From Hoeflea sp. (GTDB taxonomy: Bacteria; Pseudomonadota; Alphaproteobacteria; Rhizobiales; Rhizobiaceae), in NCBI RefSeq assembly GCF_039975035.1, contig NZ_JBDWHW010000021.1:392-64391 (forward strand): a DNA stretch of 64,000 nucleotides, given 5' to 3'. How positions within the stretch are numbered: the first letter of the stretch is position 1; each line of letters starts with the position of its first letter. Both the position numbers and the translations under genes were made by a program. Shown piece after piece: positions 32,504-52,541 of this stretch. Under the pieces are notes generated by a model, which saw only the letters and a program-made list of their open reading frames with translations, was not told where the DNA came from and searched no databases.

Positions 32504-32514
32504 TTTCATATCCA

Positions 32515-36427: not shown

Positions 36428-36448
36428 CGTTAAATCCTTGAGAAGGGT

Positions 36449-36475
36449 GCCCAAAACCGGAAGCCGGTTTTGGGC
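36449..36475 (-). other. perfect 12-bp stem / 3-nt loop hairpin between the SBP and permease genes
   Basis: gcccaaaaccgg-aag-ccggttttgggc, read directly. Confidence 0.85.
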
Positions 36476-36523: not shown

Positions 36524-37510
36524 TTATCCGCCAAACATCTCGTTGAATTTTGCCTTGTCGGCATCGGTCTTCATCAAGACTTCCTGGGTCTTGATCGGCA
36601 TGACGGTGACATCAACGCCTTCGGGCAGCCAGGCCGGACGTCCGATGGATTGTTTGGCCGGCAGATAGCCCTGTTCAAGCGCCAGTTTCTGGCCTTCATC
36701 GGAGAGAATGAAGTCGATGAACTTCTTGGCGGCGGGAACGTTCTTGGCTTCCGCCATGATGGCCACGGGCTCGGTCACCGCCGGCACGCCTTCTGACGGA
36801 AAGACAAACTCAACCGGAGACCCCTTGGCTTTCGCATTGAGCGCCATGAAGTCAACCATGATGCCGTAGGGCCGCTCGCCGCTCGCCACCGATTTCAGAA
36901 CGGCGCCATTGCCGCGCACACTGATAAGATCGTTCTCGTGGAGTTTTTCGAAATAGTCCCATCCCAGATCCGGGTTGGCAGCAAAGCCGCTGAGAAGAAA
37001 TGCCGCAGCACCCGAATACAGCGGGCTCGGCATTACCACGAGACCCTTGTACTCGTCTCCGGCGAGATCGGACCAGTGCTCGGGCTTGGCCTTCACCCCG
37101 GTGTTGTAGGCAATGCCGGTGGTGATCAGCTTGCTGCCGAAATAGGTCTTGTCCGCGTCATAGGCATTTTCGGAGAAGCCTTCGACATTTGCTTCGGGGT
37201 AGCTCAAGAGCTTGTCTTGGGCCTTGAGGCTCTCCATGCTCACCGCATCGGCAATCAGCAGAACGTCAGCTTGCGACGCACCAGCCGCAAACTCGGCGGC
37301 CAACTTGCTCATGATGTCGCTGGTCCCCGAACGATATATCTGCACCTCGATGTCGGGATTGATTTTGCGAAACGCCTCAACGGTCTTGGCTGCATCGGCG
37401 TCCGGCTGCGATGTATAGAGCGTCAACTCATCCGCATGCGCACTCGACAGCATGAAGGCAGCGGCAAAAAACACCGGGGCTCGCTTCAACGCCTTGGAAA
37501 ACACGTTCAT
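36524..37510 (-). CDS. ABC transporter substrate-binding protein, Fe3+/AfuA-type family
   Basis: ORF 36524..37708. ATG at 37510 (MNVFSKALKRAPVFFAAAFMLSSAHA signal peptide) after AAGAGGAG. ELTLYTSQPD... pattern. Confidence 0.85.
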   Translation of the reverse strand: MNVFSKALKRAPVFFAAAFMLSSAHADELTLYTSQPDADAAKTVEAFRKINPDIEVQIYRSGTSDIMSKLAAEFAAGASQADVLLIADAVSMESLKAQDKLLSYPEANVEGFSENAYDADKTYFGSKLITTGIAYNTGVKAKPEHWSDLAGDEYKGLVVMPSPLYSGAAAFLLSGFAANPDLGWDYFEKLHENDLISVRGNGAVLKSVASGERPYGIMVDFMALNAKAKGSPVEFVFPSEGVPAVTEPVAIMAEAKNVPAAKKFIDFILSDEGQKLALEQGYLPAKQSIGRPAWLPEGVDVTVMPIKTQEVLMKTDADKAKFNEMFGG

Positions 37511-37624
37511 CTTATAATCTCCTCTTGGTCCAATTGTGCTCCTGTCAGGCCGCATACGTGCCTGATCACATTTAACGCGCAAGCCACTGGACCGTGCGAT
37601 GGCTTGCAACCTCCTCACTACTGT

Positions 37625-37652
37625 ACATTTGTAACATTTGTGCGACATTTGT
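37625..37652. promoter_or_regulatory. three direct repeats ACATTTGT (37625..37632, 37634..37641, 37645..37652) in the SBP/SorC divergent region
   Basis: gtACATTTGTaACATTTGTgcgACATTTGTcc, read directly. Confidence 0.5.
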
Positions 37653-37740
37653 CCAATCTGATATTTGCGCCGCGACGCAGTTTTTTGTGGTAAGGCGAAA
37701 ATCAACATGTTTTCAGGACCGGCATTGCAAAGGACACCCG

Positions 37741-38700
37741 ATGAGCGAACAGGAATGGCGGAGCAAATCCTCCAACCTCAAGGTGAAGACCGCCTGGCTC
37801 TACCATGTTGAAAAGATGACGCAGGAGCAGATCGCCGATCATCTTCAGATCAGCCGGGTGAAGGTGATGCGGACATTGGCGGAGTGTGTCACCGAAGGAA
37901 TCGTGGTCACCACGATCAACAGCGCGGCCTCCGAGCAGATTGCCGCCGAACGGGCACTCGAAAAGCGCTGGAACCTGTCATCCGCCGTCGTCATTCCCTC
38001 TCCCTCCAATGACAAGAACCTGGAGAAGGCGATCGGACACGCCATTGCGCGCTACCTGAGTATGGAGATGGGAGATGGCAAGACACTTGCTATCGGCGGG
38101 GGCGCAACCCTGTTCAGCAGCCTGCAGTTTTTGGAGAAACGGAAGCTCAAGGACGCCTCCGTCATTGGACTGGTCGGCAGCCTGCCGCATTCGGGGTGGA
38201 TCAACCCCTCGATTGTCGCCGCGCGGGTTGCCGAGGCATTCGATATCGACAGCTACCAGATCACCGCGCCCGTGGTCGTTGACAGCCCGAAACTCGCGAA
38301 AGCTCTCTGGGCACAGCCGCCCTTGATGGAAGTCAAACAACGTACGGCAAATGCGGACATCGCCTTGCTGACTGTCGGGGAAATAACCCCCGATGCGACA
38401 ATTTTCAGGCATGGTATTGTTGGCAGCGACCTCATCCCGTCACTGGTCGCAAAAGGCGCAGTGGCCAACGTGCTGTGTTACTTCATCGACGCGCAGGGCA
38501 ACCTGGTTGATCACGAACTCAACAGCCGCATCATGGCGGTCGACCTGGCCACTGTCTGCAAAATTCCAAGGATTGTTCTTGCCGCAGGCGGCGCCGCAAA
38601 AGTAAAGGCCATCCTGGCGGCCCTGCACCTCATGCCGACGGGGGTTCTCGTCACCGACATGCTAACGGCCCAGGCATTGCTGGACCACGATGGACCGTAG
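37741..38700 (+). CDS. SorC/DeoR-type sugar-binding transcriptional regulator
   Basis: ATG at 37741 (MSEQEWRSKSSNLKVKTAWLYHVEKMTQEQIADHLQISRVKVMRTL) followed by a sugar-phosphate-binding domain. Confidence 0.88.
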   Translation: MSEQEWRSKSSNLKVKTAWLYHVEKMTQEQIADHLQISRVKVMRTLAECVTEGIVVTTINSAASEQIAAERALEKRWNLSSAVVIPSPSNDKNLEKAIGHAIARYLSMEMGDGKTLAIGGGATLFSSLQFLEKRKLKDASVIGLVGSLPHSGWINPSIVAARVAEAFDIDSYQITAPVVVDSPKLAKALWAQPPLMEVKQRTANADIALLTVGEITPDATIFRHGIVGSDLIPSLVAKGAVANVLCYFIDAQGNLVDHELNSRIMAVDLATVCKIPRIVLAAGGAAKVKAILAALHLMPTGVLVTDMLTAQALLDHDGP

Positions 38701-38711
38701 AGCGGCAGGGA

Positions 38712-39107
38712 TCAGAGGACGCCACGCCCTTTGAGAAATTGCTCCAGACCAACATGAGTGATGGTTTCGAATTCGGCCACCGCCGCGGCAAACCGGTCGC
38801 GTTGCTTGATCATCAGCCGAAACACCTGGCGCATCTCGCCAGACACGCCAAACCGCTGCCAGTGTTCGGCAACATGGCTGGGCATGTCCAGATCGCGGCA
38901 GAAATCGGCTATATCGTCATATCCGAGTTGCGCCAGGCTCGACTTTACGTCCGCGGGAGACATCCGGTCTTCCGTCGCATGGTCGTGCAGCCTGTGGGCC
39001 AGCAGCCGCAAATCGGAAGGCGATGATTCGAGCACCCGTTTGACGATGTTCGGCACCTGCATTGGAAGCTTCGGCATCTGGTTTTCTCCGGTCTTTTCAA
39101 GCGCCAT
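38712..39107 (-). CDS. hypothetical small protein
   Basis: 131-aa ORF (alternative start at MPKLPMQ) with coding-like composition. No family recognised. Confidence 0.45.
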   Translation of the reverse strand: MALEKTGENQMPKLPMQVPNIVKRVLESSPSDLRLLAHRLHDHATEDRMSPADVKSSLAQLGYDDIADFCRDLDMPSHVAEHWQRFGVSGEMRQVFRLMIKQRDRFAAAVAEFETITHVGLEQFLKGRGVL

Positions 39108-39296: not shown

Positions 39297-40301
39297 TCAC
39301 TCGTCGGTCGCCAACAGGCGCATGGCTGTGGCTTCGTCGGTCACAAACGTATTCGGCTTGACGGATTTCAAGGTTGCCCGGATCGCCAGGGTTTTCTCAA
39401 TCCCACCGGAAATCAACACCTTGTCCGACAATCGCGACAGGCGATCAACCGACACGGAAATGCAGCGTTCATTGACAGGGTGGGGAACCGGCTGGCCATC
39501 CCTGTCGAGAAAATTGTAAAGAACATCTCCCACCGCTCCGGCTTCGATCAGCGAGATCCGCTCAGCCTCCGAAACATGGCCGGTCCGGTAAGATGTGGTC
39601 AATGTCGATATGCCGCCACATGACAGCAACACGACGTCACAGGTTTCAGCCATGCTCATGATATGGTCGAGCCCGCAATGCTCCAGCAGTGCATGCTTGG
39701 TCTGGGCGGAATCGACAATCGCCGGCGCCGGAATCAGGAAGCCTTCCGCGTCAAACAGTTCGGCAAACTGCCAGGCGAATTCCGCCGGATTGAACCGGCG
39801 TGCCTGGGCAATTCCGCCGAGTAGCGAGACGACCCTGGCCCCCTCGAGGGTCCGCCCTTCGACATAGGGAAGCATGGTATGAAGCGTTCGTCCCCAGCCA
39901 ACGCCGATGGTCACGTTGTTGCGCATCAGGCCCGAAACATATTCGCCTGCGGCGGCGGCGATGACCCGCGTCGGGTCGCCATCGTCTTCCGTGAACGGAG
40001 CGACAATGGCCTTGGCCAGGCCGAACTTCTTCTCGAGCTGGATCTGGGCCTCGATCAACGGCCCCAGTTTCGACTTGATCCGGATCACGACTTCGCCGCG
40101 CTTTCTGGCTTCCGAAAGCAGGCGCGTGATCATGATACGGTTGACGCCGAGCCGATCCGCCACGTCCGATTGCGTGAGGCCTTCCACGTAGTAGAGCCAT
40201 GCCGCGCGCACCCGCAACTGACTTTGCGGATCCGACACCGGTTTACCGCGACCGACAGAGCCGCTCGGTAGTGTGTCTGCTGCCATGAGATATTCCTGCA
40301 C
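39297..40301 (-). CDS. SorC/DeoR-type sugar-binding transcriptional regulator
   Basis: 334 aa. LRVRAAWLYYVEGLTQSDVADRLGVNRIMITRLL HTH. Lies 21 nt downstream of the acoC-like gene on the same strand. Start GTG 40301 or ATG 40286. Confidence 0.88.
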   Translation of the reverse strand: MQEYLMAADTLPSGSVGRGKPVSDPQSQLRVRAAWLYYVEGLTQSDVADRLGVNRIMITRLLSEARKRGEVVIRIKSKLGPLIEAQIQLEKKFGLAKAIVAPFTEDDGDPTRVIAAAAGEYVSGLMRNNVTIGVGWGRTLHTMLPYVEGRTLEGARVVSLLGGIAQARRFNPAEFAWQFAELFDAEGFLIPAPAIVDSAQTKHALLEHCGLDHIMSMAETCDVVLLSCGGISTLTTSYRTGHVSEAERISLIEAGAVGDVLYNFLDRDGQPVPHPVNERCISVSVDRLSRLSDKVLISGGIEKTLAIRATLKSVKPNTFVTDEATAMRLLATDE

Positions 40302-40322
40302 TGATCACCGTTTCGCCAGCTA

Positions 40323-41618
40323 TCATAGATGGGTACGCAGGAGTTTTCCAACCTCGTCGGGAATTTCGAATTGCGGAACGTGTCCGACATTGTCGAACAG
40401 GTGCAAGCTTACCCGGCCCGGAGCCCGCAAAGCATGTTGCCAGGGGATGATCCGGTCTTGCCTTCCCCAGACAATTCGCGTCGGCGTTGCGACCCGGTCC
40501 AATGCGGATTTCATGTCAAAAGCCTGAACCCCATCGGGGAAGACTGCATCCGCCAAAGCATTTTGCGCCAGACGCATACCGGCATCTGCGCGCGCAGCCA
40601 TCGCTGCCCGCACATAGCCATCGCCGATCAACCGCTCATCCGCAACCATCTGCTTCAGCCAGGGGCCCAGGCTCTCGGCGCGCGTGGCGTTTCCAATTCC
40701 GGTGAGAGCTTGTCCATTGATATCGGGTCCAAGCCCGGCCGGCGCCAAAAGCGTCAGGGAGCATACTGTCTTGGGCCGAGTGTCGGCGAGCGCAAGGGCA
40801 GCCGCGCCGCCGAGGCTGTGGCCAATCAGATGTGCAGATCCCAGATCAAGCGCGTCAAACGCCCGGCGCACTGCCGACACAAGATCGGCAAAGCAGGATA
40901 TGCGAAGTCGCGGCGACTTGCCGTGAGATGGCAGCTCGATCCGGAAGATCGGATGGTCATTCAAGTACCCTTCCAACGGTGCCCAGGATTTCGCATCGCT
41001 GGCAAAGCCGTGGATCAGCAGGATCGGCGTGCCGGATCCGGCTTTGCTGCGTGACACGGCCAGGGGGCCGGTCTCGGAGACGAAGCCGGGTGGTGCCGCC
41101 ATCGGCAGCGGTAGTGGTTGATCCAGGATGCCACGCACATCCTCGGCCTGAACCCGGCCGCGAGGCCCGCTTCCAGCAACATCCTCAATATCAAGTCCGG
41201 CCTTGCGTGCCAGCGAGCGGGCCAGGGGCGTGGCGCGCGCCTTCTGGCGAGCAGGCGGAGCGGAAGAAGCATCGTCAGCCGGCGCGGTGGCGACCGGATT
41301 TGAATCACGGTCAGGTATTGCTTCCGGCGCCGGATCAGATGCGTGAGGTATCGCGGCTTCGGGTGGCGCACCGACCTTCTCGCCCTCGGCATAGATCCAG
41401 GCTACCGGCTGCCCGATTGGCACATCTGTGCCTTCGGCAACCGGATGATGCAGGTAACCGCTCGCGGAAGCCTCGACCTCCATTGCCGCCTTGTCAGTCT
41501 CGATATCGAAAAGCGGATCGCCTTGACCCACCTTCTCGCCTGCCGCGACATGCCATACCGAGATCTTGCCACTGGCCATGTCCATGTCGACTTTCGGCAT
41601 GATGACTTCAACAGGCAT
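40323..41618 (-). CDS. acoC: AcoC-type E2-like protein: lipoyl domain, linker and alpha/beta-hydrolase fold
   Basis: 431 aa. Lipoyl-lysine motif DIETDKAAMEVEA, Pro/Ala linker, GxSxG LIGHSLGGAAAL, C-terminal NVGHVPQFE. Confidence 0.8.
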   Translation of the reverse strand: MPVEVIMPKVDMDMASGKISVWHVAAGEKVGQGDPLFDIETDKAAMEVEASASGYLHHPVAEGTDVPIGQPVAWIYAEGEKVGAPPEAAIPHASDPAPEAIPDRDSNPVATAPADDASSAPPARQKARATPLARSLARKAGLDIEDVAGSGPRGRVQAEDVRGILDQPLPLPMAAPPGFVSETGPLAVSRSKAGSGTPILLIHGFASDAKSWAPLEGYLNDHPIFRIELPSHGKSPRLRISCFADLVSAVRRAFDALDLGSAHLIGHSLGGAAALALADTRPKTVCSLTLLAPAGLGPDINGQALTGIGNATRAESLGPWLKQMVADERLIGDGYVRAAMAARADAGMRLAQNALADAVFPDGVQAFDMKSALDRVATPTRIVWGRQDRIIPWQHALRAPGRVSLHLFDNVGHVPQFEIPDEVGKLLRTHL

Positions 41619-42628
41619 CAGATAAGGCCTTTTGCAATGTTACGGGCAGCTTCCACAATGTCGGGCACCTGAGGCACGACAGCCTTTTCAAGCTCGGGAT
41701 TGTAGGGAATAGGGCTTTCCGCCCCCCCCAAGCGAACAATGGGCGCCTCGAGGAAATCGAATGCGTCGCTCTCGGCGACCATGGCCGATATTTCCGCACC
41801 AACACCCAAAGTCTTGACCCCCTCATAGACGCAGATCAGTTTTCCGGTCTTGCGGACAGAGCCCAGAACCGTCTCCCGATCCATCGGGCGCACGGTGCGA
41901 AGATCAATCACTTCGACATCAATGCCCTCGCTGGCCAAAGTCTCCGCAGCGCTCAAAGCCTTGTGCACCATCAAGGATGTGGCAACGATTGAGAGATCCT
42001 TGCCTGACCGGCGGATCGCAGCCTTGCCGATAGGTGTTGTGTAGTATCCCTCAGGGACGTGGCCCTTCATCTTGTAGAGGATCTTGTGTTCGAAGATCAT
42101 CACCGGATCAGGGTCCTCAAGCGCTGCCAGCAGCATGCCTTTGGCATCTTCGGGCGTGGAGGGCTGGATAACCTTCAGACCCGGCACGTGACCAAACCAG
42201 GCTTCGAGGCTTTGCGAATGTTGCGCCGCTGCTCCGGTTCCCGAGCCCGCCGGAAAGCGCATCACAAGCGGAACAGAGACGGCACCGCCCAGCATGTAGC
42301 GGATCTTGGCCGCCTGGTTGACGATTTGCTCCATCGCCAAGGCAGCAAAATCCGAAAACTGGAATTCAAAGATCGGTCTGAGGCCCGTCAAAGCCGCCCC
42401 GACAGCTACGCCAGCGCCGCCAAGCTCCGAAATCGGCGTGTCCATCACCCGGTCCGCGCCGTATTTCTCGACCAGATTGCCGGTCACCTGGAACGCGCCG
42501 CCATAAACGCCGATGTCTTCTCCCATCAGTATGACCCGTTCATCGCGCTCCAGGGAGATGTCCATCGCCTCGCGAATTGCTTCCGCATAGGAGAGTTCGC
42601 GAAGCTCGGATTTGCCCTGAGCGTTCAT
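41618..42628 (-). CDS. acoB: ThDP-dependent dehydrogenase E1 beta subunit (acetoin dehydrogenase-like)
   Basis: 336 aa with the typical E1-beta pattern ([24 protein letters not shown]). 1-nt overlap with acoC. Confidence 0.85.
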
Positions 42629-43629
42629 GCCGCAGCTCCATCGGTATAGACAAAACGGGTGGCATCACCGAGTTCGGGCGAGGGGCTCGCCGCCGCAAAT
42701 TCAATCGCCTCCTTGATCACCCGCGCCGCTTCGTCGTGCAGCGCTTCGACCTCGGCTTCCGACATGATCATGTGCGCGACGAGCAACTCGGTCATTTGCC
42801 GGATCGGGTCGAGATCCATCCACTCGCTGATCTCTTCCTTGGTACGGTAGCGGTTGCGGTCGGATTTCGAATGACCACGCCACCGGTAAGTCAGATTCTC
42901 GACCAGGCTTGGTCCATCCCCCGCCCGCGCCCGCGCAACGGCGGCATCGACGGCCTCGGTCACTGCGGAGAAGTCATTGCCGTCCACCGTTACACCCGGC
43001 ATCGAATAGGCGACGGCGCGCTCGGCGATGTTCTTGACTGCGGTGGATCGTTCCGTCGAAGTCGACATGCCGTATTTGTTGTTCTCGCAGACAAAAACTA
43101 CCGGGAGCTTCCAGACGGCAGCCATGTTCAGCGCTTCATGGAAGGCGCCTTCATTGTTGGCACCGTCACCGAAGAAGCAGACTGTCACAGCCCCCGTTCC
43201 CAACCGCTTCGCCGACAGCGCAGCGCCCACGGCAATCGGCAGACCGCCGCCGACAATACCGTTGGCGCCCAGATTGCCCTTGGTCACATCGGCAATGTGC
43301 ATCGAGCCGCCCCGGCCCCGGCAATAGCCGGTGTCCTTGCCAAAGAACTCGGCGAACATTTTTCCAAGATCGGCGTTCTTTGCAATGCAATGGCCATGGC
43401 CGCGGTGGGTCGAGGTGATCTTGTCTTCATCACTGAGCGACATGCACGAGCCGACCGCGGATGCCTCCTGCCCGATCGACAAGTGCATTGTGCCGTGAAT
43501 CAGGCCGCGCGTGTAGCAGTCTTCCGCACCTTCCTCGAACCTGCGGATCAGGATCATCTTGCGCAACGCCCCTTTCAACGCCTCCGGGCTATAGGCGCGC
43601 ACGGCATAAGGGGTATTGATCTCAGACAT
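42625..43629 (-). CDS. acoA: ThDP-dependent dehydrogenase E1 alpha subunit (acetoin dehydrogenase-like)
   Basis: ATG at 43629 ([10 protein letters not shown]) overlaps the upstream [46 protein letters not shown]. Confidence 0.85.
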
Positions 43630-45010
43630 TGGCCGCCACTTTCCCGTAGAGCATTTCATCCTGGCGTCGCCGCAATTCGACGATCTTCGCGTTTGGCAGA
43701 GTGGTATTGAGTGCGGTGATCAATTCACCTTTCCGGATCGGCGCAGTCACCGTTGCACCGGTCAGCAGACCGGCCGGCTGCGCTTGCGCAGCGCGTGCCC
43801 GGGAAACTTCCATGGCCCAGGCGCGGTAGGTGTATTCGCCGATCTGATCGAGCTTTTCGCCCGGTTTCAGATCCCGTTTGGCCACCGCCGCAACTTCGGC
43901 AACAGGCCGGTCGAGGGGGATCATATCGGCCTTGCCGTAAAGGACGGCGCGCGCGCAGGTCAGCGGAACTTCCAACGAGGTCAGGTGATAGGGCCGGATA
44001 AACTCGAAATAAGGACCATCGCCCATCTTCAGATCGGTCAGGCGCTCGCGAATACGCGGGTGTTCGGCTTCGATGATGACGAAGACGCCGGGCGAAACCC
44101 CCTTGCCGATCGAGTAGTCGACCCGGCCTATGCCTTTCAACAGACCACCGTCCTTTTCAGGAATCAGGGTCTTGGCCAGATCCTTCGGGCCGGCGGCAGG
44201 ACCATGCATGCCATCACAATCAGGGATCAGTCCGGTGGCGTTGGCGATGGCAGACATTTCCACCATGGTCTTCGACCCGTCGACAAATTCGACCAGCAGA
44301 CGCGGGTTCATGTGACGCTGCATGGCTTCGGCTTCGTAGGCATCAGGCGTCGCGTCGATGTTGAGCGGGTTGTTCTTGCCCTTGCCGGCGCAGATGATCT
44401 TGTGCCCCATCGCCGAGACGAACTCGATCAGCTCCATGCAGGACGACGGTTCGTCGCCCGCACCCAGACTGTAGACCACGCCCAACCGCTCGGCCTCGCG
44501 CCGCAGGTAGGAGCCGATGGTGACGTCGGCTTCGACATTCATCATCACCAGATGCTTGCCACGCTCCATCGCGCGCAGCCCGATTTCCGCGCCGACTGCA
44601 GGAATGCCCGTCGCGTCGATGACCACATCGATGAGGCCCGATTCGAGGATTGCGTCGGCGTTGTCGGCGATCGCGGTCTTGCCGCTCTCGATCACAGCGT
44701 TCAACGCATCTGTCGTGTTGGCGTCCTGGCTGGAACCTTTCGACCGTCTGGCGATCTCGACCGCCCGGTGCGCCGCCGCCGGGTTGATTTCCGAAATGGC
44801 GGCAACCTCGACGCCATCCATCATCGAAGCCCGCGTGACGATGTCGGTTCCCATCTCGCCTGAACCGATCAGACCGATGCGCACCGGCCTGCCGTTACCT
44901 GCCCGCGCCGCGAGATCCTTGGCCAACCCCGTCAGTGCAATGTTTGACCCCATTTCGACAACTCTCCCATAATCAACAGCTGCCCAAGCATCATGAACTT
45001 TAGTACTCAT
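43622..45010 (-). CDS. NAD(P)-binding dehydrogenase with C-terminal SAF-like domain (predicted homoserine-dehydrogenase-like family)
   Basis: 462 aa. Rossmann motif VRIGLIGSGEMGTDI, central dehydrogenase fold, C-terminal PIRKGELIT segment. Family call from memory of this architecture. Confidence 0.65.
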   Translation of the reverse strand: MSTKVHDAWAAVDYGRVVEMGSNIALTGLAKDLAARAGNGRPVRIGLIGSGEMGTDIVTRASMMDGVEVAAISEINPAAAHRAVEIARRSKGSSQDANTTDALNAVIESGKTAIADNADAILESGLIDVVIDATGIPAVGAEIGLRAMERGKHLVMMNVEADVTIGSYLRREAERLGVVYSLGAGDEPSSCMELIEFVSAMGHKIICAGKGKNNPLNIDATPDAYEAEAMQRHMNPRLLVEFVDGSKTMVEMSAIANATGLIPDCDGMHGPAAGPKDLAKTLIPEKDGGLLKGIGRVDYSIGKGVSPGVFVIIEAEHPRIRERLTDLKMGDGPYFEFIRPYHLTSLEVPLTCARAVLYGKADMIPLDRPVAEVAAVAKRDLKPGEKLDQIGEYTYRAWAMEVSRARAAQAQPAGLLTGATVTAPIRKGELITALNTTLPNAKIVELRRRQDEMLYGKVAANV

Positions 45011-45062
45011 GTCAACTCAATTGTTCGTTCATATTCGGCGAATCCTATTGACTTCCAAGCCC

Positions 45063-45102
45063 ATCTGAACAAAGTTAGCCTTGTAAATGCTAATGTTCAG
45101 AT
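45063..45102. promoter_or_regulatory. 9-bp perfect inverted repeat ATCTGAACA-N22-TGTTCAGAT in the divergent promoter region
   Basis: Read directly. Arms at 45063..45071 and 45094..45102, between starts 45010 (minus) and 45189 (plus). Confidence 0.5.
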
Positions 45103-45188
45103 CATTGTGCAGGATCACAAAGGTCAAGGCGTAATCCCGGGGAGATTGCGACTCGGGTATTCAAGCGAACTCTAGGGAGGAGAATCCA

Positions 45189-46742
45189 ATGAAATTCAGA
45201 GGCAAGCTCTCGCGGCGCTCTTTTTTGAAGAACACCACCGCGACAGGAATTGCGATCGCTGGCACGACGTGGGGCACCCCGTTGCTCGCGGCATCCCATC
45301 TTCCGGATCCGCAAAGCGTGCTCGACGATATTTCAATCTCTAAATACGTGCGCAAGGACTACCAGAAACTCTATGGAATGTCTGACGACAAACCAATTTG
45401 GGACAACAGCAAGGACTGGATCAGGACCGTAGACTGGGACGCTGTGCGCAGCGAACTGGCTGGAACAACGGTTCGCTTTGCAGTTGGCGCTGCCGATGCT
45501 GAGTCGGCAGCTGAAGGTCTTGTGCCGTTTGAAGCACTTTCAGGTATCAAGGTCGAACTGGTTCCGATCCCGGATGACAGTTTCTACGACAAGGCACTGG
45601 CCGAATTCATCTCGGGCAATGCATCCTTCGATGCACTTCAGTTCTTCTCGCCCTGGCTGGGAGACTTCGCAGCGCCCGGCTTCCTGCATGAACTCGACGG
45701 GTTCGCAGACAAGTGGAACCTGCCGCTCGACGATTTCTATGACACCTACCGGCTCAACTACGGTTTCTTCAACGGCAAGATGTACGGCATCCCGTTCGAC
45801 TGCGACGTCCAGATGGTTCATGTCCGCAAGGGCTATATGGAGAAGCTCCTCGGTGGTGAAGTCGACCGCGTCAATTCTATTCCGACCTATGACGAACTGA
45901 TCCGCGTCTCGCGCGAACTCAACAAGGTCGAACCCGGCGTCTCCGGAGTAGGCTTGATGGCCGCACCGGGCTTCTGGTCAACCTACACCTGGGAACACGT
46001 ATCGGCGCAGGCCGGCATGATGCTGTTCGACGAAAACTGGGAACCAATCTTCAACGGTGATGCCGGCATGAAGGGACTCGAGATTATTCTCGAACTGTCC
46101 AAGAACGCCAATGAAGGCCATGCCGGTGCCGGTTGGCCGGAAAACCGTGCCGCCTGGCTCGGTGGTCAGGTTGCCACCAACATCAGCTGGCAGGATTCCG
46201 GCACCCAGGCCATGCGCCCGGACCAGTCGCAGATCGTCGACGACTTCGTCACTATCTACGAACCCCGCATCGCCGGAGGGCGCTTGGCGCCGCCGAATAT
46301 TGCCGGGTCCACCTCCTGTGTCGCCGCATCGGCTCAAAATGCCGAAGGCGCCTTCCTGATGCTGGCCTTCCTCACCACCGGTTCGATCATGGCCATGAAC
46401 GAAGCCAATGCCAACGGCGTTGCTCCGGGCTACAAGTCGGTGTTGACCAACCCCAACCTTCAGGAAGTCTCGCAGCCAGCCAAAGTCTGGGCCGACTCGC
46501 TTGAACACGCCTGGTGTTCACCGCGTCTGCCGGGAGCCTTCCCGATTGAACAGGCCATCGGCAACGAGATCAACCGGGCGGTTGTTGGCCAGATCACGGC
46601 CAAGGAAGCCCTCGACAACGCCGCATCCGCCGTCAAGGCCATAATGGCCAGCAACGGCTTCTACCAGGGCAAGGATCCGGTAGACTACGCGGCTGCGGCG
46701 CCGGGACTTTATGTCGGAGAAGGCAAGAAGCTTCCCTTCTGA
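45189..46742 (+). CDS. large family-1 (CUT1) sugar ABC substrate-binding protein with twin-arginine signal
   Basis: 517 aa. MKFRGKLSRRSFLKNTTATGIAIAG Tat-type leader. GGGAGGAG RBS. Confidence 0.85.
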   Translation: MKFRGKLSRRSFLKNTTATGIAIAGTTWGTPLLAASHLPDPQSVLDDISISKYVRKDYQKLYGMSDDKPIWDNSKDWIRTVDWDAVRSELAGTTVRFAVGAADAESAAEGLVPFEALSGIKVELVPIPDDSFYDKALAEFISGNASFDALQFFSPWLGDFAAPGFLHELDGFADKWNLPLDDFYDTYRLNYGFFNGKMYGIPFDCDVQMVHVRKGYMEKLLGGEVDRVNSIPTYDELIRVSRELNKVEPGVSGVGLMAAPGFWSTYTWEHVSAQAGMMLFDENWEPIFNGDAGMKGLEIILELSKNANEGHAGAGWPENRAAWLGGQVATNISWQDSGTQAMRPDQSQIVDDFVTIYEPRIAGGRLAPPNIAGSTSCVAASAQNAEGAFLMLAFLTTGSIMAMNEANANGVAPGYKSVLTNPNLQEVSQPAKVWADSLEHAWCSPRLPGAFPIEQAIGNEINRAVVGQITAKEALDNAASAVKAIMASNGFYQGKDPVDYAAAAPGLYVGEGKKLPF

Positions 46743-46777
46743 TAGGCAACAAAACAACAGACAGACAGGATCTCAAT

Positions 46778-47722
46778 GTGAGTAAATCCTCCCTGTCGGA
46801 CACCGGGGCGGCTGCGGTCGCCCCGGTCCCGCCGACGCACCAGAAGCTGAAACGGCGAAGCAAGCGCCTCAAGGCATGGTTTCCATACCTGCTGGTGGCG
46901 CCGGCCGTCATCTATCTCTTGCTGATCACTCTCTATCCGGGCATCTATGCGGTCATCCAGAGCTTCCACCATGTGAAGTTTGGGCCCTGGCAACCGGTGG
47001 GCCTGGCCAATTACATTCGCCTGTTTCAGGATTATCAATTCTGGGGCGCGATCTGGAACACCCTGGTGATCGGCTCGGTCTCGCTGGTCCTGCAATGTGT
47101 GCTCGCGCTTGCGATTGCCTTTTATGCCTACCGCGACCCCTGGGTAAAAGGCTGGCGGATCATCTTTCTGGTTCCGATGCTGTTCATGCCGTCGGCGGTG
47201 GCGTTCATCTACAAATTGTCATTTCTCGACGCCCGGGTGTTTGCCGACCTTCTGATGCGGATCGGCCTGATTGACGGCAATATCGCTTACCAGTCGTCGA
47301 TCTGGATGAGCCGTGGCATTCTGATCCTGGCCGACGTCTGGCAATGGACTCCGTTCCTGTTCATCATTTTTGTCGCCGCTTTGCAGGGACAGGACGAGGA
47401 GGTCGAGGAAGCCGCGCGGCTTGATGGCGCATCCTGGTATGCGATCTTCTGGAACATATCGCTACCGATGATGAAGCCGGTGATTGCCGTTGCCCTGATC
47501 CTGCGCGCCATCGACATCACCACGATGTTCACCAACGTCTTCATCATCACCAAAGGTGGCCCGGCCTTCGGCACGGAAACCATCAGCTATTTCATCTATC
47601 GAACCGGGTTCAAGTTCTTTGACTTTGGCTATGCCTCTTCCGCATCGGTGATCATGCTGGTGATCACCATTATCATTGCGCAGCTTGTCGTAAAGCGCGC
47701 CTTTGTCTCGGCGAGGAACTGA
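46778..47722 (+). CDS. sugar ABC transporter permease (MalF/UgpA type)
   Basis: 314 aa with 6 TM. EAA-like loop EEAARLDGASWYAIFWNISLP. GTG start. Confidence 0.88.
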   Translation: MSKSSLSDTGAAAVAPVPPTHQKLKRRSKRLKAWFPYLLVAPAVIYLLLITLYPGIYAVIQSFHHVKFGPWQPVGLANYIRLFQDYQFWGAIWNTLVIGSVSLVLQCVLALAIAFYAYRDPWVKGWRIIFLVPMLFMPSAVAFIYKLSFLDARVFADLLMRIGLIDGNIAYQSSIWMSRGILILADVWQWTPFLFIIFVAALQGQDEEVEEAARLDGASWYAIFWNISLPMMKPVIAVALILRAIDITTMFTNVFIITKGGPAFGTETISYFIYRTGFKFFDFGYASSASVIMLVITIIIAQLVVKRAFVSARN

Positions 47723-47725
47723 TCC

Positions 47726-48571
47726 ATGGCCTCACAACGCAAAAGCTCCCGAGGCGAAAGCCTGCTGCTGCGATACGCAATTCTCGGCGCCTGGGCCTTG
47801 TTCTGCCTGGCTCCCGTGCTGTGGTTCCTGTCCATCGGACTGCGCCCCCGGACAGAGATCATCACGCCACAACCGATCTACTGGCCGAGCTTCTCGCTCG
47901 ATGCCTGGCACATGATCTGGGAAGACTGGCCGATGGCCAAATATCTCCGCAACTCGGTCGCGGCGATCTTCGGATCGGTGATCATTGATCTCGTGCTCGC
48001 GGTGCCTGCGGCCTATTCACTGGCCCGCTACACCTACCGGGGCAGAGACGATATCGGCTTCTATATCCTGTCAACGCGCATGATGGCTCCGGCAATTGTC
48101 GCGATCCCGATCTTCTTCCTGTTCCGCAATCTCGGCTTGCTGGATACCATCTGGGCACTGATGCTGATCTATGCCGCGATCAACCTGTCCTTTGTGACCT
48201 GGATTATCCGCTCCTACATGCTCGACATTCCCAAGGAGCTGGAAGACGCCGCCCGGACCGATGGTGCAGGCGATCTGCGCATCCTGTGGGAAATCATCAT
48301 TCCCGCTGTCCTGCCCGGCATTATCACAGCTTCGGTGATCGCCATGATTTTTGCGATCAACGAGTTTCTCTTCACGCTGCTGATCGCCTCGACCCCCAAC
48401 GCCTACACGATGTCGGTGGCGCTGGCGAACTTCACCGGCGGATCCGACGGTCTGATTTACAATGCAATTGCACTGGTTGCCTTCCTCGCCTTTGTGCCGG
48501 TCTTCCTGGTGGTTGTCGCCATCCAGAAGCACCTGTCGCGCGGTCTGACCATGGGCGCAGTGAAAGGATAA
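47726..48571 (+). CDS. sugar ABC transporter permease (MalG/UgpE type)
   Basis: 281 aa. EDAARTDGAGDLRILWEIIIP loop. Confidence 0.88.
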   Translation: MASQRKSSRGESLLLRYAILGAWALFCLAPVLWFLSIGLRPRTEIITPQPIYWPSFSLDAWHMIWEDWPMAKYLRNSVAAIFGSVIIDLVLAVPAAYSLARYTYRGRDDIGFYILSTRMMAPAIVAIPIFFLFRNLGLLDTIWALMLIYAAINLSFVTWIIRSYMLDIPKELEDAARTDGAGDLRILWEIIIPAVLPGIITASVIAMIFAINEFLFTLLIASTPNAYTMSVALANFTGGSDGLIYNAIALVAFLAFVPVFLVVVAIQKHLSRGLTMGAVKG

Positions 48572-48575
48572 GAAT

Positions 48576-49625
48576 ATGGCGAGAATTGAACTGACGGGCA
48601 TTCAGAAAAAATGGGGCACCGTCTGGGGTGTCCGCGATGTCAATATCGACATCGCCGATGAAGAATTCATCGTCTTCCTCGGACCTTCGGGCTGTGGCAA
48701 GACGACGACGATGCGGATGATCGCTGGCCTGGAGGACCCAAGCGAGGGCGAGATCCGCATGGACGGCGAGGTCATGAACGAAATCGATGCCCGTGACCGG
48801 GATGTGGCCATGGTGTTCCAGGGCTATGCGCTCTATCCCAACATGTCGATTTACGAGAACATCCGTTTTCCGCTGCGGATGCGCGGCGTCGACAGAAGCG
48901 AGCATGACACGCTGGTCCGGCGTGCCGCGGGCCTGGTCGAAATGACCGAGTATCTCGACCGCAAGCCCGGCGCCCTGTCGGGTGGCCAGCGCCAGCGCGC
49001 AGCGCTTGCACGCGCCATCGTGCGCCAACCGCAGGTCTTCCTGATGGATGAACCCCTGTCCAACCTCGACGCCAAGCTGCGTCAGGCCATGCGGGTTCAG
49101 ATCAAGCACATTCAGCGGCAGCTGAAAATCACCACTGTCTATGTGACCCATGACCAGATCGAAGCCATGACGCTCGCCGACCGGATTGTCATCATGCAGT
49201 CCGGCCTGATCCAGCAGATCGGCACACCCGACGAGATCTACAATGATCCGGCCAACACCTTCGTTGCCGGCTTTATCGGATCTCCGCCGATGAACCTGAT
49301 CGAAGGCCAGTTGAGCGATGGCGTGTTTACGGCTCCAGGGATCAAGGTCGCCGGGCTCTCCCTGTCCCCCACTGGCAAGGTCACGCTTGGAATTCGCCCG
49401 GAAGACTGCACCGTGGGCGGCAATGGCGCGCAACTCAAGGGCACGGTTTACGGTGTTGAGCCAACCGGCGACATCACCTATCTGACCATCAAGGCGGGTG
49501 AGAAACTGCTCGAAGTCAAGGCGGAGCGCAATTGTCGTTCGGAACTGGGCGTGGAGGAATCAGTGGCATTTGACCCGGCGCGCATTTACCTCTTCGATGC
49601 TAAGACCGGTCAGCGCCTGCGCTGA
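48576..49625 (+). CDS. sugar ABC transporter ATP-binding protein (MalK/UgpC type)
   Basis: 349 aa. GPSGCGKTTTMRMIAGLE, LSGGQRQRAALARAIV, FLMDEPLSNLD. Confidence 0.92.
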   Translation: MARIELTGIQKKWGTVWGVRDVNIDIADEEFIVFLGPSGCGKTTTMRMIAGLEDPSEGEIRMDGEVMNEIDARDRDVAMVFQGYALYPNMSIYENIRFPLRMRGVDRSEHDTLVRRAAGLVEMTEYLDRKPGALSGGQRQRAALARAIVRQPQVFLMDEPLSNLDAKLRQAMRVQIKHIQRQLKITTVYVTHDQIEAMTLADRIVIMQSGLIQQIGTPDEIYNDPANTFVAGFIGSPPMNLIEGQLSDGVFTAPGIKVAGLSLSPTGKVTLGIRPEDCTVGGNGAQLKGTVYGVEPTGDITYLTIKAGEKLLEVKAERNCRSELGVEESVAFDPARIYLFDAKTGQRLR

Positions 49626-49653
49626 CCCGCCCGCGACAGCCCTGGGAGGCCTG

Positions 49654-50610
49654 ATGACGTTCGATTACACTTCGATGGGATTTTACACCTTCGACGCGCT
49701 GTGCCGGCCGGTCAGTGACCTGCCGCCAGGCGGCGGCACCCTGTTTGTCGACGATTTCGCCCTGGCTGTCTCTGGGGCTGCGGGGTCTGCCTCCATCGTG
49801 GCGGCCAAGCATGGCCTCAAGGTGCAGGCGGTTGGCGGCGTTGGCCATGACCTGATGGGTGACTGGGTGCTGCGGCGGCTTGACGATTTTGGCGTCGACC
49901 GGCTGCTGATCCAGCGCTGCGAAGGGTTCTCGACGTCGTCGAGCATTGTCACCACCCGGCCCGACGGCGCCCGGCCAGCCTTGCACAAGCTCGGGGCGAC
50001 GGCCGGCTTCTATGTTGACGATGATCAGGTCGACCGGGTGCTCGACACCAAAATTCTTCATATCGGAGGCGTCGGGCTGATGGATGCCATGGACCAGGGC
50101 CGCAATGCCGATATTCTGAAGGAGGCCAAGAAGCGCGGCTGCACCACGACGCTGGATGTGTTTGCCTCAACCCAGGACGACCTGCCGCTGATCAAGCCGC
50201 TTCTTGCCAATACAGACTTCTTTATGCCTTCCGAGGAAGAGGCAGCGGCCCTGTCCGGCTTGTCCGATTTCGAGGACATTGCAAGCTTCCTGCTCGATCA
50301 CGGCGTCGGCGCCGTCATCCTGACACTGGGAGCCAACGGCGCCATGTACAGGGACGCCAAGGGAAACAAGATCGACATACCGTCCTATGCCATCGACGTG
50401 GTCTGCACCTGTGGCTGCGGTGACTGTTTCAACGCCGGCTTTGCCACGGGACTGCATCTGGGGAAATCCATCGAGGACTGCATCCGGATGGGCCAGGCCA
50501 CCTCGGCACAGAATGCGATGGGATTGGGATCGCAGGCTGTTGTGAAGGATCTCGACACGACACTTTCCTTCATGGCAAAAACCAGAACTCGCGATTATGT
50601 TGTCAAATGA
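49654..50610 (+). CDS. PfkB-family carbohydrate kinase
   Basis: ATG at 49654 (MTFDYTSMGFYTFDAL). PfkB signature-2-like DVVCTCGCGDCFNAGFATGL. Confidence 0.85.
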   Translation: MTFDYTSMGFYTFDALCRPVSDLPPGGGTLFVDDFALAVSGAAGSASIVAAKHGLKVQAVGGVGHDLMGDWVLRRLDDFGVDRLLIQRCEGFSTSSSIVTTRPDGARPALHKLGATAGFYVDDDQVDRVLDTKILHIGGVGLMDAMDQGRNADILKEAKKRGCTTTLDVFASTQDDLPLIKPLLANTDFFMPSEEEAAALSGLSDFEDIASFLLDHGVGAVILTLGANGAMYRDAKGNKIDIPSYAIDVVCTCGCGDCFNAGFATGLHLGKSIEDCIRMGQATSAQNAMGLGSQAVVKDLDTTLSFMAKTRTRDYVVK

Positions 50611-50629: not shown

Positions 50630-51301
50630 ATGTCCGTTTCGCACCCCGATCCAAGAGAGCTGACACTGCCATTGCGTGACCTCGTCAGGGGCCTTCATCA
50701 GAAAGCGTCCTCTTCGCGCGCCCTTCTGGCGCCTGCACTTGAGTTTCTTCCAGGCCCCTTGCGCGAAGCGATAAGGGATATCACACAGATCAATCGTCCA
50801 GGCGGGAAGGTGTTACGTTCCTTTCGGAAACCGGATTCGGCGGCTGTTGTCCGCACCGCGGCAGCGCTGCGTGGAGAAACCGTGCCGGCTGTGGACACGG
50901 TTTCAGTTGCTGCGTTTGCCATCCGTATCCTGCTTGACGCTGCCAACGAGCAGGACTTCCTGATCAGCAAGACCATCCTCGCACTGTGCTGGCATGATGT
51001 GGGAGACCGGCGGTTTCGCGCTGCAGCCTATGTTCACGCCCTTGTTAACCGGAACCCGTTTGGTGTGGCTCCCGGCCTGGTTCATACCGAGGCTGATTTG
51101 GATGGTAGGGAACGCAAACGGATTTGCATTGCCCTGGTTCTCTGGCTCCTCGCTGATCATGAAGATGATGGCGCTTGCGAGGAGGAACTGGTGAGGATTG
51201 CCGGCTGGTTGGCGGGCGATTGTCTGGATGCCTGTCAAGCCCGATGGGACGATGCAGAACAGCTTGAAATCGTGTTAATCGAGACTGCGGGACGGATCTG
51301 A
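50630..51301 (+). CDS. hypothetical protein, no recognisable family
   Basis: ATG at 50630 (MSVSHPDPREL), 11 nt after AAAGGAGGG and 19 nt after the kinase stop. 223 aa, soluble, helical-looking. Confidence 0.55.
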   Translation: MSVSHPDPRELTLPLRDLVRGLHQKASSSRALLAPALEFLPGPLREAIRDITQINRPGGKVLRSFRKPDSAAVVRTAAALRGETVPAVDTVSVAAFAIRILLDAANEQDFLISKTILALCWHDVGDRRFRAAAYVHALVNRNPFGVAPGLVHTEADLDGRERKRICIALVLWLLADHEDDGACEEELVRIAGWLAGDCLDACQARWDDAEQLEIVLIETAGRI

Positions 51302-51302
51302 C

Positions 51303-51899
51303 GTGAAAGACGCCCTGCATGTCCTCGATAAGCGTAACCTTCCTGTCCGCAAGACCATTCGCCGCGCCCGCTGGTTCACAGCCTCTTTTCGCGATTTTCT
51401 CGGCTCGGTTTCGGATGAAACGCAACGACACTATGTCCTCGATGAAGGAAAGCTCATATCCGCATTCACGTCATGGTTCCGTGCCTTCGAAGCGCAAAAG
51501 TACAAGGCCAGGGAACATCGACTGGAATATGTGACCTTCTCGGCTGGTTTGATGTTGCGGGAACTGGTGCGTCACGCGCCTGTAACGGCTGAACCATATG
51601 TCGGCCCGGTCGATCAGAGTGCGCCCGAGGGGTTCTGGCCGGAAGGCTACTTGTACGTCACATTTTGCCTGGCCGTCAGAGAGGCTGTCATTGAGCAGGA
51701 CTTTTCACTGGTCAACGATGTGACGCCGGAGCTTGGCGACCTCCGGACCTGGTGGTCCTTCAGGGAGAATACACGCGACGATATTGATCTGGCCGTCAGT
51801 TTTTTTGAGCGGTTCGCCGGTGAAATGCCCAACTGGTCCACGCCGGGACTGTTTCTACCCCACAACTCCAGGGAAAAGACCCAAAAATCGCTCAGTTGA
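51303..51899 (+). CDS. hypothetical protein, no recognisable family
   Basis: GTG start 1 nt after the upstream stop. 198 aa, Trp/Phe-rich and soluble. Confidence 0.5.
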   Translation: MKDALHVLDKRNLPVRKTIRRARWFTASFRDFLGSVSDETQRHYVLDEGKLISAFTSWFRAFEAQKYKAREHRLEYVTFSAGLMLRELVRHAPVTAEPYVGPVDQSAPEGFWPEGYLYVTFCLAVREAVIEQDFSLVNDVTPELGDLRTWWSFRENTRDDIDLAVSFFERFAGEMPNWSTPGLFLPHNSREKTQKSLS

Positions 51900-52480
51900 G
51901 CGCTTCCTGGATTCCGGCTATGGTGTTCGGTATTCCCGGCGACGCCGTCACAGCAATTGCCGTTGGCGTTTTGGTGATGAAGGGGCTGGACCCAGGGCCC
52001 ACATTGATGACCCTCCATCCGGAAAACTTCTACGCTGTTATGATCGTCTTTGCCATTGCCAACGTGCTGATGCTGCCACTTGGATGGGTAGCCGCCAAAA
52101 GCGCGCGGTGGATTTTTGAAGTGCCGCGCGCCTTGCTGAACGCTGCCGTACTGCTGTTCTGCATTGTCGGCTCCTACTCTATCAACAATACCATGTTCGG
52201 CGTGACACTGATGCTGGCCGCGGGGGTGGTCGCCTTTGTACTGGAATCGCGCATGATCGCCATCGCTCCAGTTATTCTTGGCATCGTGCTCGGGCCACTT
52301 GTCGAAACCAATTTCACCACATCAATGATCATTGCAGATGGAAACCTGGTCGGGTTTTTCAGTCGTCCCGTTGCGGCTGGATTGGGAATCGTGACCCTGC
52401 TTATCTGGGGTGTCACCATTGTTCACGCTATTCAGGGCTTTCTTGTAAAGTGTCGACAGGATCCGGGGCTGGAAGAGTAA
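51896..52480 (+). pseudogene. 5'-truncated tctA (C-terminal ~190 of ~500 codons only)
   Basis: The translation WIPAMVFGIPGDAVTAIAVGVLVMKGLDPGP...GIVLGPLVETNF aligns with the C-terminal third of the intact TctA (LIPLLALGIPGDVITAIIIGAFMIHGLQPGP...FILGPLLEDNF). No N-terminal part, tctB or tctC nearby. Confidence 0.8.
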
Positions 52481-52541
52481 GGATGGTGGCAGCGGAGGAT
52501 TTTTTGCAATCTTCTTGATATGGGTTGAATTGTCCCTCCGC

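Follow-up and report, generated by a model that had tools for sequence, protein, structure and literature searches.

We examined a gene cluster at positions 39297-50610 of a 64,000-nt window (the whole stretch of DNA analysed) from Hoeflea sp. (GCF_039975035.1, contig NZ_JBDWHW010000021.1). The cluster couples a member of the DXR-II (DRL) clade, whose tested members turn DXP (1-deoxy-D-xylulose 5-phosphate) into MEP (2-C-methyl-D-erythritol 4-phosphate), to a thiamine diphosphate (ThDP)-dependent E1, a lipoyl-bearing E2, a sugar importer and a kinase. Judged from homology and gene linkage, it is very probably a catabolic module centred on DXR-II rather than an acetoin pathway. We also favour, by a modest measure, a more specific assignment, in which the module would break down the 2-C-methyl-D-erythritol (ME) skeleton by way of MEP and DXP to acetyl-CoA and glyceraldehyde 3-phosphate (GAP).

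DXR-II identity and linkage to E1

The first gene of the minus-strand operon (43622..45010) encodes a 462-aa protein that had been read from the letters as a SAF-domain dehydrogenase. An oxidoreductase with a SAF domain it is, but its identity had been missed: profile searches matched DRL_cat (PF21135; 217 bits, E 1.7e-64) along with NAD_binding_3 and SAF, and the protein is a close homologue of Brucella DXR-II (Brucella abortus DRL structures PDB 3UPL/3UPY; 600.7 bits, E 1.6e-179, ~70% identity). Published lists give the positions at which true DXR-II differs from the inactive DLO proteins related to it, along with those that bind fosmidomycin or make up the dimer (Carretero-Paulet et al. 2013, PMC3847144), and the ten taken from there are all kept in the alignment with 3UPL (G121, E174, F178, K191, K193, T229, H250, R320, Y322 and V351 in Brucella numbering). 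Of the ten, K191, K193 and T229 anchor fosmidomycin or the phosphonate, E174, F178, R320 and Y322 belong to the dimer contact, and G121, T229, H250 and V351 are diagnostic of DXR-II; the set places the protein in the DXR-II clade rather than with DLO1 or DLO2. Because all ten are conserved, the protein is, by alignment, a member of the DXR-II clade, of which 11 members, including both Mesorhizobium loti paralogues, are reported functional in that they complement DXR-deficient E. coli (PMC3847144).

The same genome encodes an ordinary DXR-I (421 bits, above the cut-off) and a DXS (811.8 bits), and the DXR-II copy is therefore not needed for isoprenoid synthesis. In a census of carriers, DXR-I was present in none of the 10 genomes with a stand-alone DRL and in 16 of the 24 with a DRL-E1 cluster. 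The distribution of DXR-II has been reported as unexplained, some carriers having no other MEP-pathway or mevalonate-pathway genes and no ecological or phenotypic trait being common to them except animal pathogenicity; gene neighbourhoods were not discussed (PMC3847144). A second PF21135 protein in the Hoeflea genome (G000:C49:7140-7691) is 33% identical to the window's DRL, is DLO-like with an insertion of ~20 residues, and has no E1 neighbour.

We then scanned for linkage with one genome per species, which gave 80 loci whose DRL is 68-86% identical to that of the window, 76 of them evaluable for flanks. Genes for E1 alpha and E1 beta lie directly downstream of DRL in 68 of the 76 loci, and DRL stands alone in the other 8. 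The DRL-E1 loci come from Rhodobacterales, Stappia, Pannonibacter, Hoeflea, Mesorhizobium and others. A solute-binding protein (SBP) of the CUT1 type is divergent from DRL in 33 loci (30 of these with the kinase), a kinase orthologue occurs without the CUT1 SBP in 12, and an Afu-type transport module is linked to DRL-E1 in 11 loci besides that of the window.

The association is also exclusive in an even set of 401 alphaproteobacterial genomes. PF21135 proteins are present in 102 of these, mostly as DLO-type paralogues, and no E1 was found near any of the 14 DLO-type paralogues that we looked at. Six genes of the DXR-II clade occur in the set, four followed by E1, one alone and one on a contig that is too short. 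E1 alpha proteins of at least 63% identity were found only beside DRL, in four genomes (next best, 52%), and orthologues of the PfkB kinase (69-78% identity) only in the three genomes with the full cluster (next best, 43%). One genome of the set (G040) carries an unpublished flag, and none of our claims depends on it. Two metagenome contigs carry a more distant DRL (43% identical) with the E1 alpha and beta genes downstream, E1 alpha (56-61%) directly so, and a Gut-type phosphotransferase system (PTS) IIA gene directly upstream, in place of the ATP-binding cassette (ABC) transporter and kinase. Taken on linkage, DXR-II and this E1 subtype form an ancient and specific pair, and the uptake system around the DRL-E1 core is interchangeable: we observed a CUT1 ABC transporter with PfkB, a CUT2 ABC transporter accompanied by an orthologue of PfkB, and kinase-free forms that have either an Afu-type importer, of the phospho-sugar type, or a Gut-type PTS. 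The CUT2 variant stands in Paracoccus alkanivorans (L042:62-8544), where the transporter (Peripla_BP_4, BPD_transp_2, double ATPase) lies beside the kinase orthologue and is followed by a Zn-dependent alcohol dehydrogenase (Zn-ADH), a GlpD/EryB-like flavin-dependent (FAD) dehydrogenase, a gene pair (d1/d2) described below and DRL-E1.

The E1/E2 complex and its operon partners

E1 alpha, the ThDP diphosphate-binding half (42625..43659, minus strand; PF00676, E 2.7e-91), and E1 beta, the ThDP pyrimidine-binding half (41618..42628, minus strand; PF02779 and PF02780), follow DRL in the operon; by comparison with relatives of 334-340 aa, E1 alpha likely starts at ~43629. A protein search with E1 alpha returned close relatives only and no named AcoA, and was unusable for phylogeny. 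Five canonical aco operons were obtained instead by a phylum-wide genome search with the AcoC model. The window's E1 subunits are 44-52% identical to the canonical aco E1 and 44-46% identical to the pyruvate dehydrogenase (PDH) E1 of their own genome. E1 beta is 73-90% identical within the DRL-linked loci, whereas canonical AcoB, like the Hoeflea genome's E1 beta of PDH and of branched-chain ketoacid dehydrogenase (BCKDH), reaches 44-47%. The window's E1, the sole Aco-like E1 in the genome, is thus not orthologous to AcoA/AcoB of the canonical operons and is no closer to them than to PDH E1. A 759-aa frame elsewhere in the genome (G000:C230:1315-4974) matches both the E1 alpha and E1 beta profiles and is apparently a fused alpha-beta E1.

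The DRL-linked subunits carry an active-site signature of their own, defined here as positions that are invariant in the 74 alpha and 71 beta DRL-linked sequences and that differ in both Aco and PDH. Catalytic features of human PDH E1 (1NI4) are conserved, namely the ThDP/Mg motif of alpha (GDGA...ENN), H59 and H263 of alpha and E68 of beta. The alpha pocket loop reads IHGTMH where Aco has IPGFVH, with H55 and T57 in place of Pro and Phe. After the catalytic His263, alpha reads GHSKSDRNR where Aco has GHFEGDAQT; K/R265 replaces the Aco Glu next to the catalytic His, and R268 and R270 are also signature residues. This stretch is one that we take to be phosphorylation loop A of human PDH E1, lining the active-site channel. 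In beta, the bulkier forms of Aco and PDH give way to SELGGAG and FQFSDF, and the clade-specific residues include G71, A72, Q90, S92, K186 and K188. The distant, PTS-linked E1s retain H55, T57 and K265 together with the QFS motif of beta. No Aco E1 structure was found among solved structures. The added basic residues and the smaller pocket residue would be expected for a larger, phosphorylated substrate. By these alignments, the DRL-linked E1 is a distinct subfamily and, strictly, no acetoin enzyme, in keeping with the view of the sequence-only reading that this is not classical acetoin catabolism.

The AcoC-type E2 (40323..41618, minus strand; NF011457, PF00364, PF02817, PF12697) passes the acetoin-dehydrogenase E2 model (355.8 bits against a cut-off of 307). 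It has a lipoyl domain (Lys43, TDKA motif), an E3-binding domain and an acyl-transfer domain of the alpha/beta-hydrolase fold (GHSLGG). The corresponding E2 of Mesorhizobium and Aquamicrobium retains a lipoyl and an E3-binding domain, but its catalytic domain is the classical acyltransferase of 2-oxoacid dehydrogenases, PF00198 (269.9 bits); the conserved feature is therefore lipoyl-dependent acyl transfer and not the AcoC fold. Such PF00198-type proteins follow the DRL-linked E1 in Mesorhizobium jarvisii (L078:13389-14759) and in two further loci (L060, L073), and no DXR-I was found there. As had been noted for the window, an E3 gene was absent from the window's contig; the genome's three matches above the family cut-off lie on other contigs, at the PDH, 2-oxoglutarate dehydrogenase (OGDH) and BCKDH loci.

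Gene families were assigned from a listing of open reading frames (ORFs) combined with profile searches (Pfam, NCBIfam), and all ten ORFs named by the sequence-only reading were recovered at the same positions with the same families. That reading had also described start/stop overlaps throughout the minus-strand operon; three junctions do overlap (by 1 nt, 4 nt and ~8 nt), but the remaining one is a gap of 21 nt. On the plus strand, the second operon begins with a Tat-signal CUT1-type SBP of 517 aa (45189..46742; PF01547) with the twin-arginine motif SRRSFLK (TIGR01409 above cut-off). Its orthologues divergent from DRL are 71-89% identical, its nearest solved relative scores 55.7 bits, and the sorbitol binder 4RYA scores 46 bits. 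Permease 1 (46778..47722; PF00528), conserved in the cluster, and permease 2 (47726..48571; PF00528), 80-93% identical in related clusters, are followed by a UgpC/MalK-type ATPase (48576..49625; PF00005, OB_MalK, TOBE_2) that scores 424 bits with NF008653, just under the cut-off of 432. The transporter thus has the makeup of a CUT1 sugar/polyol importer, with SBP_bac_1 for binding, a pair of BPD_transp_1 permeases and, as ATPase, a MalK/UgpC type that bears TOBE domains. Last comes the PfkB-family kinase (49654..50610; PF00294, 124.7 bits), which probably starts at 49654 and not at 49498. Its best NCBIfam equivalogs, IolC and ribokinase, reach ~107 bits against cut-offs of ~300, its best solved relative is ribokinase (85 bits), and its subfamily has no characterised member. 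We propose the SBP as a binder of ME or a close analogue and the kinase as a methylerythritol 4-kinase.

The last gene of the minus-strand operon encodes a SorC/DeoR-Bac-type regulator (39297..40301) with helix-turn-helix matches and a PF04198 domain for sugar-phosphate binding (172.7 bits, E 1.1e-50). Against NCBIfam, it scores 194 bits with DeoR-Bac and 139 bits with LsrR (cut-off 486), both under cut-off, and its orthologues (52-74% identical) follow the E2 gene in most related loci. The control region common to both operons (45011..45188) is 178 nt long, as had been claimed, and contains an inverted repeat, ATCTGAACA (45063-45071) and TGTTCAGAT (45094-45102). Its core, TGAACA-N22-TGTTCA, recurs between DRL and SBP in 12 related loci, which belong to several genera, and does so in the same 28-nt register. 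Conservation of the core at identical spacing supports joint control of the two operons, and the SorC protein is likely the repressor of both. Scans for promoters and terminators gave counts not above those of shuffled sequence. Linkage, exclusivity and the conserved common operator together argue for the earlier suggestion that transporter, kinase, dehydrogenase and Aco-like E1/E2 make up one pathway.

Proposed route and competing explanations

To our knowledge, DXR-II acts on DXP and MEP only. MEP has no carbonyl group and cannot be a ThDP substrate; DXP has the form CH3-CO-CHOH-R and is, like acetoin, a methyl ketol. Since the dehydrogenase is a DXR-II, the cleaved ketol is most likely DXP, formed from MEP by a reversed reductoisomerase. 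The sequence-only reading had offered 1-deoxy-ketose phosphates among its candidate substrates, which would fit DXP and is sharpened by the DXR-II identity. It had also placed oxidation before phosphorylation; both steps are kept, but phosphorylation probably comes first because the phosphonate-anchoring residues of DRL are conserved. The order ME to MEP to DXP would be the most economical, because every uptake type would deliver a phosphorylated compound and a SorC regulator fits a phosphorylated effector.

In the proposed route, the Tat-exported binding protein and the ABC transporter would bring in ME, and the PfkB kinase would convert it to MEP. DXR-II, identified by homology, would then run in what we propose to be the reverse direction (MEP + NADP+ to DXP + NADPH). 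ThDP on E1 alpha/beta would attack the C2 carbonyl of DXP and the C2-C3 bond would be cleaved, leaving hydroxyethyl-ThDP, an intermediate of both DXS and Aco E1, and freeing GAP. From family chemistry, gene linkage and the active-site signature, E1 would load the lipoyl arm of E2 with the two-carbon unit as acetyl, and E2, by its family chemistry, would move the acetyl group to CoA. Lipoamide would be reoxidised by an E3 borrowed from the PDH, OGDH or BCKDH locus, and the SorC regulator at TGAACA-N22-TGTTCA would free both operons on sensing a phosphorylated intermediate. The net conversion would be ME + ATP + CoA + NADP+ + NAD+ to acetyl-CoA + GAP. An ending in ThDP/lipoyl cleavage of a sugar-derived methyl ketol to acyl-CoA, as had been suggested from the letters, is consistent with the distinct E1 subfamily and its linkage.

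Several observations weigh against this route or narrow it. Run in reverse, the DXR reaction goes uphill thermodynamically and must be pulled by the E1 step. ME as the imported molecule is a deduction, because the close relatives of the SBP and of the kinase are all uncharacterised, and the active-site positions were mapped solely by alignment to 1NI4, not on a structure. Distant DRL homologues (39-47% identical) also occur in contexts without E1: of six distant representatives that we looked at, three have another or an uninformative context and one lies on a contig that is too short. In the three E1-less contexts, DRL is preceded by an FGGY kinase, SIS and Zn-ADH (L153), followed by Zn-ADH (L157), or preceded by a major facilitator superfamily sugar transporter, Metallophos and HAD (L160), and the DRL family may serve further sugar-phosphate pathways. 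Finally, DXR-I was not found in 8 of the 24 cluster-bearing genomes (Mesorhizobium, Aquamicrobium, Oceaniradius and the sampled genome G253). There the clustered DRL must therefore also run biosynthetically, and it cannot be purely catabolic or fully repressed in these genomes. One possible history compatible with the census is that DXR-II, at first catabolic, may have assumed the biosynthetic role where DXR-I was lost and may then sometimes have shed its partners.

Two RNA-seq runs with the same species label had 0 reads on the region and carry no weight as a test. In two biofilm metatranscriptomes, short contigs 95-99% identical are scattered over the cluster, with DNA carry-over possible; this shows that a close relative of the window genome is present in the biofilm community. 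In the searchable full-text literature, which leaves most subscription journals outside its coverage, we found no description of ME catabolism or of the DRL-E1 gene association, nor was the combination of a ketol-cleaving lipoamide complex with a reversed MEP-pathway enzyme found there.

Among the alternatives, the least unlikely, to which we still give a low probability, is utilisation or salvage of 1-deoxy-D-xylulose (DX). DX would be imported and phosphorylated by PfkB to DXP, which would be split between E1/E2 for energy and a forward-running DRL that feeds MEP into isoprenoids. The linkage evidence fits this equally well, and the clustered DRL is the only DXR found in Mesorhizobium-type genomes, so it runs forward there; E. 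coli, moreover, can salvage DX through a kinase (Wungsintaweekul 2001, as cited in PMC3424233). However, DRL would be superfluous for burning DX, yet it stands first in the E1 operon and is translationally coupled in nearly all loci, and most carriers already possess DXR-I. The kinase-free Afu-type and Gut-type PTS variants, with the beta-CASP and SurE genes described below, also suit ME-skeleton compounds better. The sorbitol PTS of Salmonella takes up ME. We consider it improbable that the substrate is instead another deoxy or branched C5/C6 ketol phosphate, such as a reduced product of autoinducer-2 (AI-2; 4,5-dihydroxy-2,3-pentanedione, DPD) by analogy with LsrK-LsrG-LsrF, with DRL acting on an analogue of DXP or MEP. 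LsrR is among the regulator's best NCBIfam matches, the Lsr pathway likewise ends in acetyl-CoA and a triose phosphate, and the specificity of SBP and kinase is not fixed by any close relative. The LsrR match, though, is far under its cut-off and weaker than that to DeoR-Bac, and the DRL is ~70% identical to a proven DXP-to-MEP enzyme and keeps every substrate-contact residue named in PMC3847144. The AI-2 variant was set aside on stereochemistry: reduction of phospho-DPD would give a 4S (L-series) deoxypentulose phosphate and not DXP. Activity in DXR-deficient E. coli across the DXR-II clade, both Mesorhizobium loti paralogues included, also speaks against an analogue substrate (PMC3847144).

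A biosynthetic role could also be proposed for the E1: as another kind of DXP synthase, it would join pyruvate and GAP ahead of a MEP-forming DRL and so provide the MEP pathway with an additional entry, and it does immediately adjoin a DXP-using enzyme. PDH-type E1 can make 1-deoxyketoses, and dxs-deficient E. coli is rescued by mutations in aceE (PMC3424233). A carboligase, however, needs no lipoyl- and E3-binding E2, yet these domains are kept even after the catalytic swap; importers, a sugar kinase and a repressor of the sugar-phosphate type are tied to the cluster, and DXS and DXR-I are already in the genome. We regard such a bypass as very unlikely. Ordinary catabolism of acetoin or 2,3-butanediol beside an unrelated dehydrogenase and sugar transporter is scarcely credible: although E2 passes the acetoin-dehydrogenase model and the E1 is the only Aco-like one of the genome, its divergence from the canonical operons is as great as that from PDH E1, and its active-site loop has Lys/Arg where Aco has Glu. 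Across the 401 sampled genomes, this E1 subtype was never found without DRL. The cluster has no acoL/E3 gene, its sole regulator is of the SorC type and not an acetoin-responsive sigma-54 activator of the AcoR type, as in model aco operons, and the E1 operon shares its conserved operator with the transporter operon.

Neighbouring genes, implications and known systems

Next to the regulator end of the cluster lies a second transport module. It consists of a SurE paralogue (31760-32641), a beta-CASP hydrolase of the metallo-beta-lactamase (MBL) fold (32515-33696) and an Afu-type ATPase (33666-34739), permease (34727-36454) and SBP (36524-37708), together with its own SorC regulator (37594-38700), which is divergent, and a small ORF at 38712-39107. 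Among solved structures, the Afu-type SBP comes nearest to AfuA (4R72-75), which binds sugar phosphates, and to 6WCE, which binds pyridoxal phosphate. In the 11 other loci where this module lies near DRL-E1 (including Oceaniglobus, Roseobacter sp. N2S, Amylibacter, Pseudogemmobacter, Aquamicrobium and Mesorhizobium), arrangements vary, and 9 of the 11 lack both the CUT1 SBP and the PfkB kinase. This suggests, speculatively, that the Afu/beta-CASP/SurE module is a second entry, for an already phosphorylated ME derivative; one candidate would be 2-C-methyl-D-erythritol 2,4-cyclodiphosphate (MEcDP), which resists alkaline phosphatase (PMC11192765).

On the far side of the kinase, two translationally coupled plus-strand genes, d1 (~223 aa) and d2 (198 aa), occupy 50630..51899 and remain without a family assignment, having no Pfam match and no useful Atlas match (best scores 0.75 and 0.86). 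Homologues of d2 occur in ~45 loci with the DRL-E1 core, whatever the transporter type, some of them divergent from DRL; in three loci (L041, L044, L045) d2 is fused to a HAD-like domain. Its motifs are RLRWF, FWPEGY and RTWWSFREN. The predicted model of d2 is all-alpha, with a mean predicted local distance difference test (pLDDT) score of 87, and had no fold match in the PDB (best E ~1) and weak matches among predicted models. One such cluster (template modelling (TM) score 0.49) pointed to a Fic-like protein, which we rejected since d2 has no Fic motif. In Roseobacter sp. N2S (L044:4582-9885), genes divergent from DRL encode, besides a d1-/d2-like pair, a HAD phosphatase of the Cof type, a protein of 406 aa that has no assigned family, and an amylosucrase-like GH13 enzyme; as a guess, this set may be related to substrate glycosides such as ME-glucosides. 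After d2 (51886-52740), the window holds a C-terminal tctA fragment (51896-52480) and a transposase-like remnant. Position 51886 is exactly where the metatranscriptome contigs of the close relative part from the window; the conserved module therefore ends there, and the window genome carries a rearrangement.

A wider and more doubtful reading takes 31760-51899 as one island for scavenging overflow metabolites of the MEP pathway, with two entries into a single DRL-E1/E2 core. Free ME might enter through the CUT1 importer and PfkB kinase, and an already phosphorylated, phosphatase-resistant derivative (such as MEcDP) through the Afu importer, to be opened by the beta-CASP enzyme and trimmed by the SurE paralogue. 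On the same tentative reading, d1/d2 would add to the pathway a component not described so far, and DXR-II would originally have been catabolic, the stand-alone biosynthetic DXR-II of Brucella and its relatives having arisen later, after loss of DXR-I.

If the ME route holds, methylerythritol-type compounds, a carbon flow without known consumers, would have a catabolic route. Isoprene oxidation also gives 2-methyltetrols. Plants and microbes export MEcDP under stress, and ME and ME-glucosides accumulate in plants (PMC11192765). The route would also explain why DXR-II is patchy, often redundant with DXR-I, and present even in bacteria without other MEP genes. Sugar-phosphate ketols would become a new substrate class for lipoamide-dependent E1/E2 complexes, and the Lys/Arg-versus-Glu signature would tell such complexes from acetoin enzymes and correct widespread annotations as "pyruvate/acetoin dehydrogenase". 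There is, in addition, a bearing on fosmidomycin-type drugs, DRL being a drug target in Brucella.

Compared with Brucella DRL, the window's protein is of the same PF21135 family with ~70% identity and the same anchor, dimer and diagnostic residues. The Brucella enzyme, however, is known as the sole biosynthetic DXR, whereas the window genome has DXR-I as well, and the window gene heads a ketol-cleaving E1/E2 operon that faces an importer and kinase, suggesting the reverse, catabolic direction. The eryABCD/EryEFG loci of Rhizobiales likewise import a small polyol by a binding protein and ABC transporter and then phosphorylate and oxidise it, and the Paracoccus variant has a GlpD/EryB-like dehydrogenase nearby. 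Unlike the window cluster, the erythritol loci use an FGGY kinase and isomerases that lead to erythrose 4-phosphate, with no ThDP/lipoyl cleavage of a C-C bond. The Lsr system (LsrACDB, LsrK, LsrG, LsrF, LsrR) resembles the proposed route in its logic: an ABC importer and a kinase come first, isomerisation follows, and a 1-deoxy C5 keto-phosphate is then cleaved to acetyl-CoA and triose phosphate, under a SorC-family repressor that senses a phosphorylated intermediate. Its enzymes come from wholly different families, with a kinase of the FGGY type, a cofactor-free isomerase (LsrG) and a thiolase of the aldolase fold (LsrF), and it has no ThDP, lipoyl or NADP step.

The closest likeness in chemistry is to AcoA/AcoB/AcoC/AcoL, which combine a heteromeric ThDP E1 with an E2 that has lipoyl, E3-binding and alpha/beta-hydrolase domains and whose family chemistry is oxidative cleavage of CH3-CO-CHOH-R to acetyl-lipoamide and an aldehyde. 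The cluster differs in having Lys/Arg for Glu beside the catalytic His and Thr for Phe in the pocket loop, in its SorC-type regulator in place of a sigma-54 AcoR-type one and its want of an E3 gene, and in an E2 catalytic domain that is exchangeable with the classical one in DRL-linked loci; the proposed leaving group would be GAP here, as opposed to acetaldehyde in Aco. DXS, for its part, handles the same C2-C3 bond of DXP through the same hydroxyethyl-ThDP intermediate, with GAP and a two-carbon unit as the two halves. It is, however, a single-chain, transketolase-like enzyme that forms the bond from pyruvate with loss of CO2, whereas the window's alpha/beta E1 would break that bond and pass the two-carbon unit to lipoamide.

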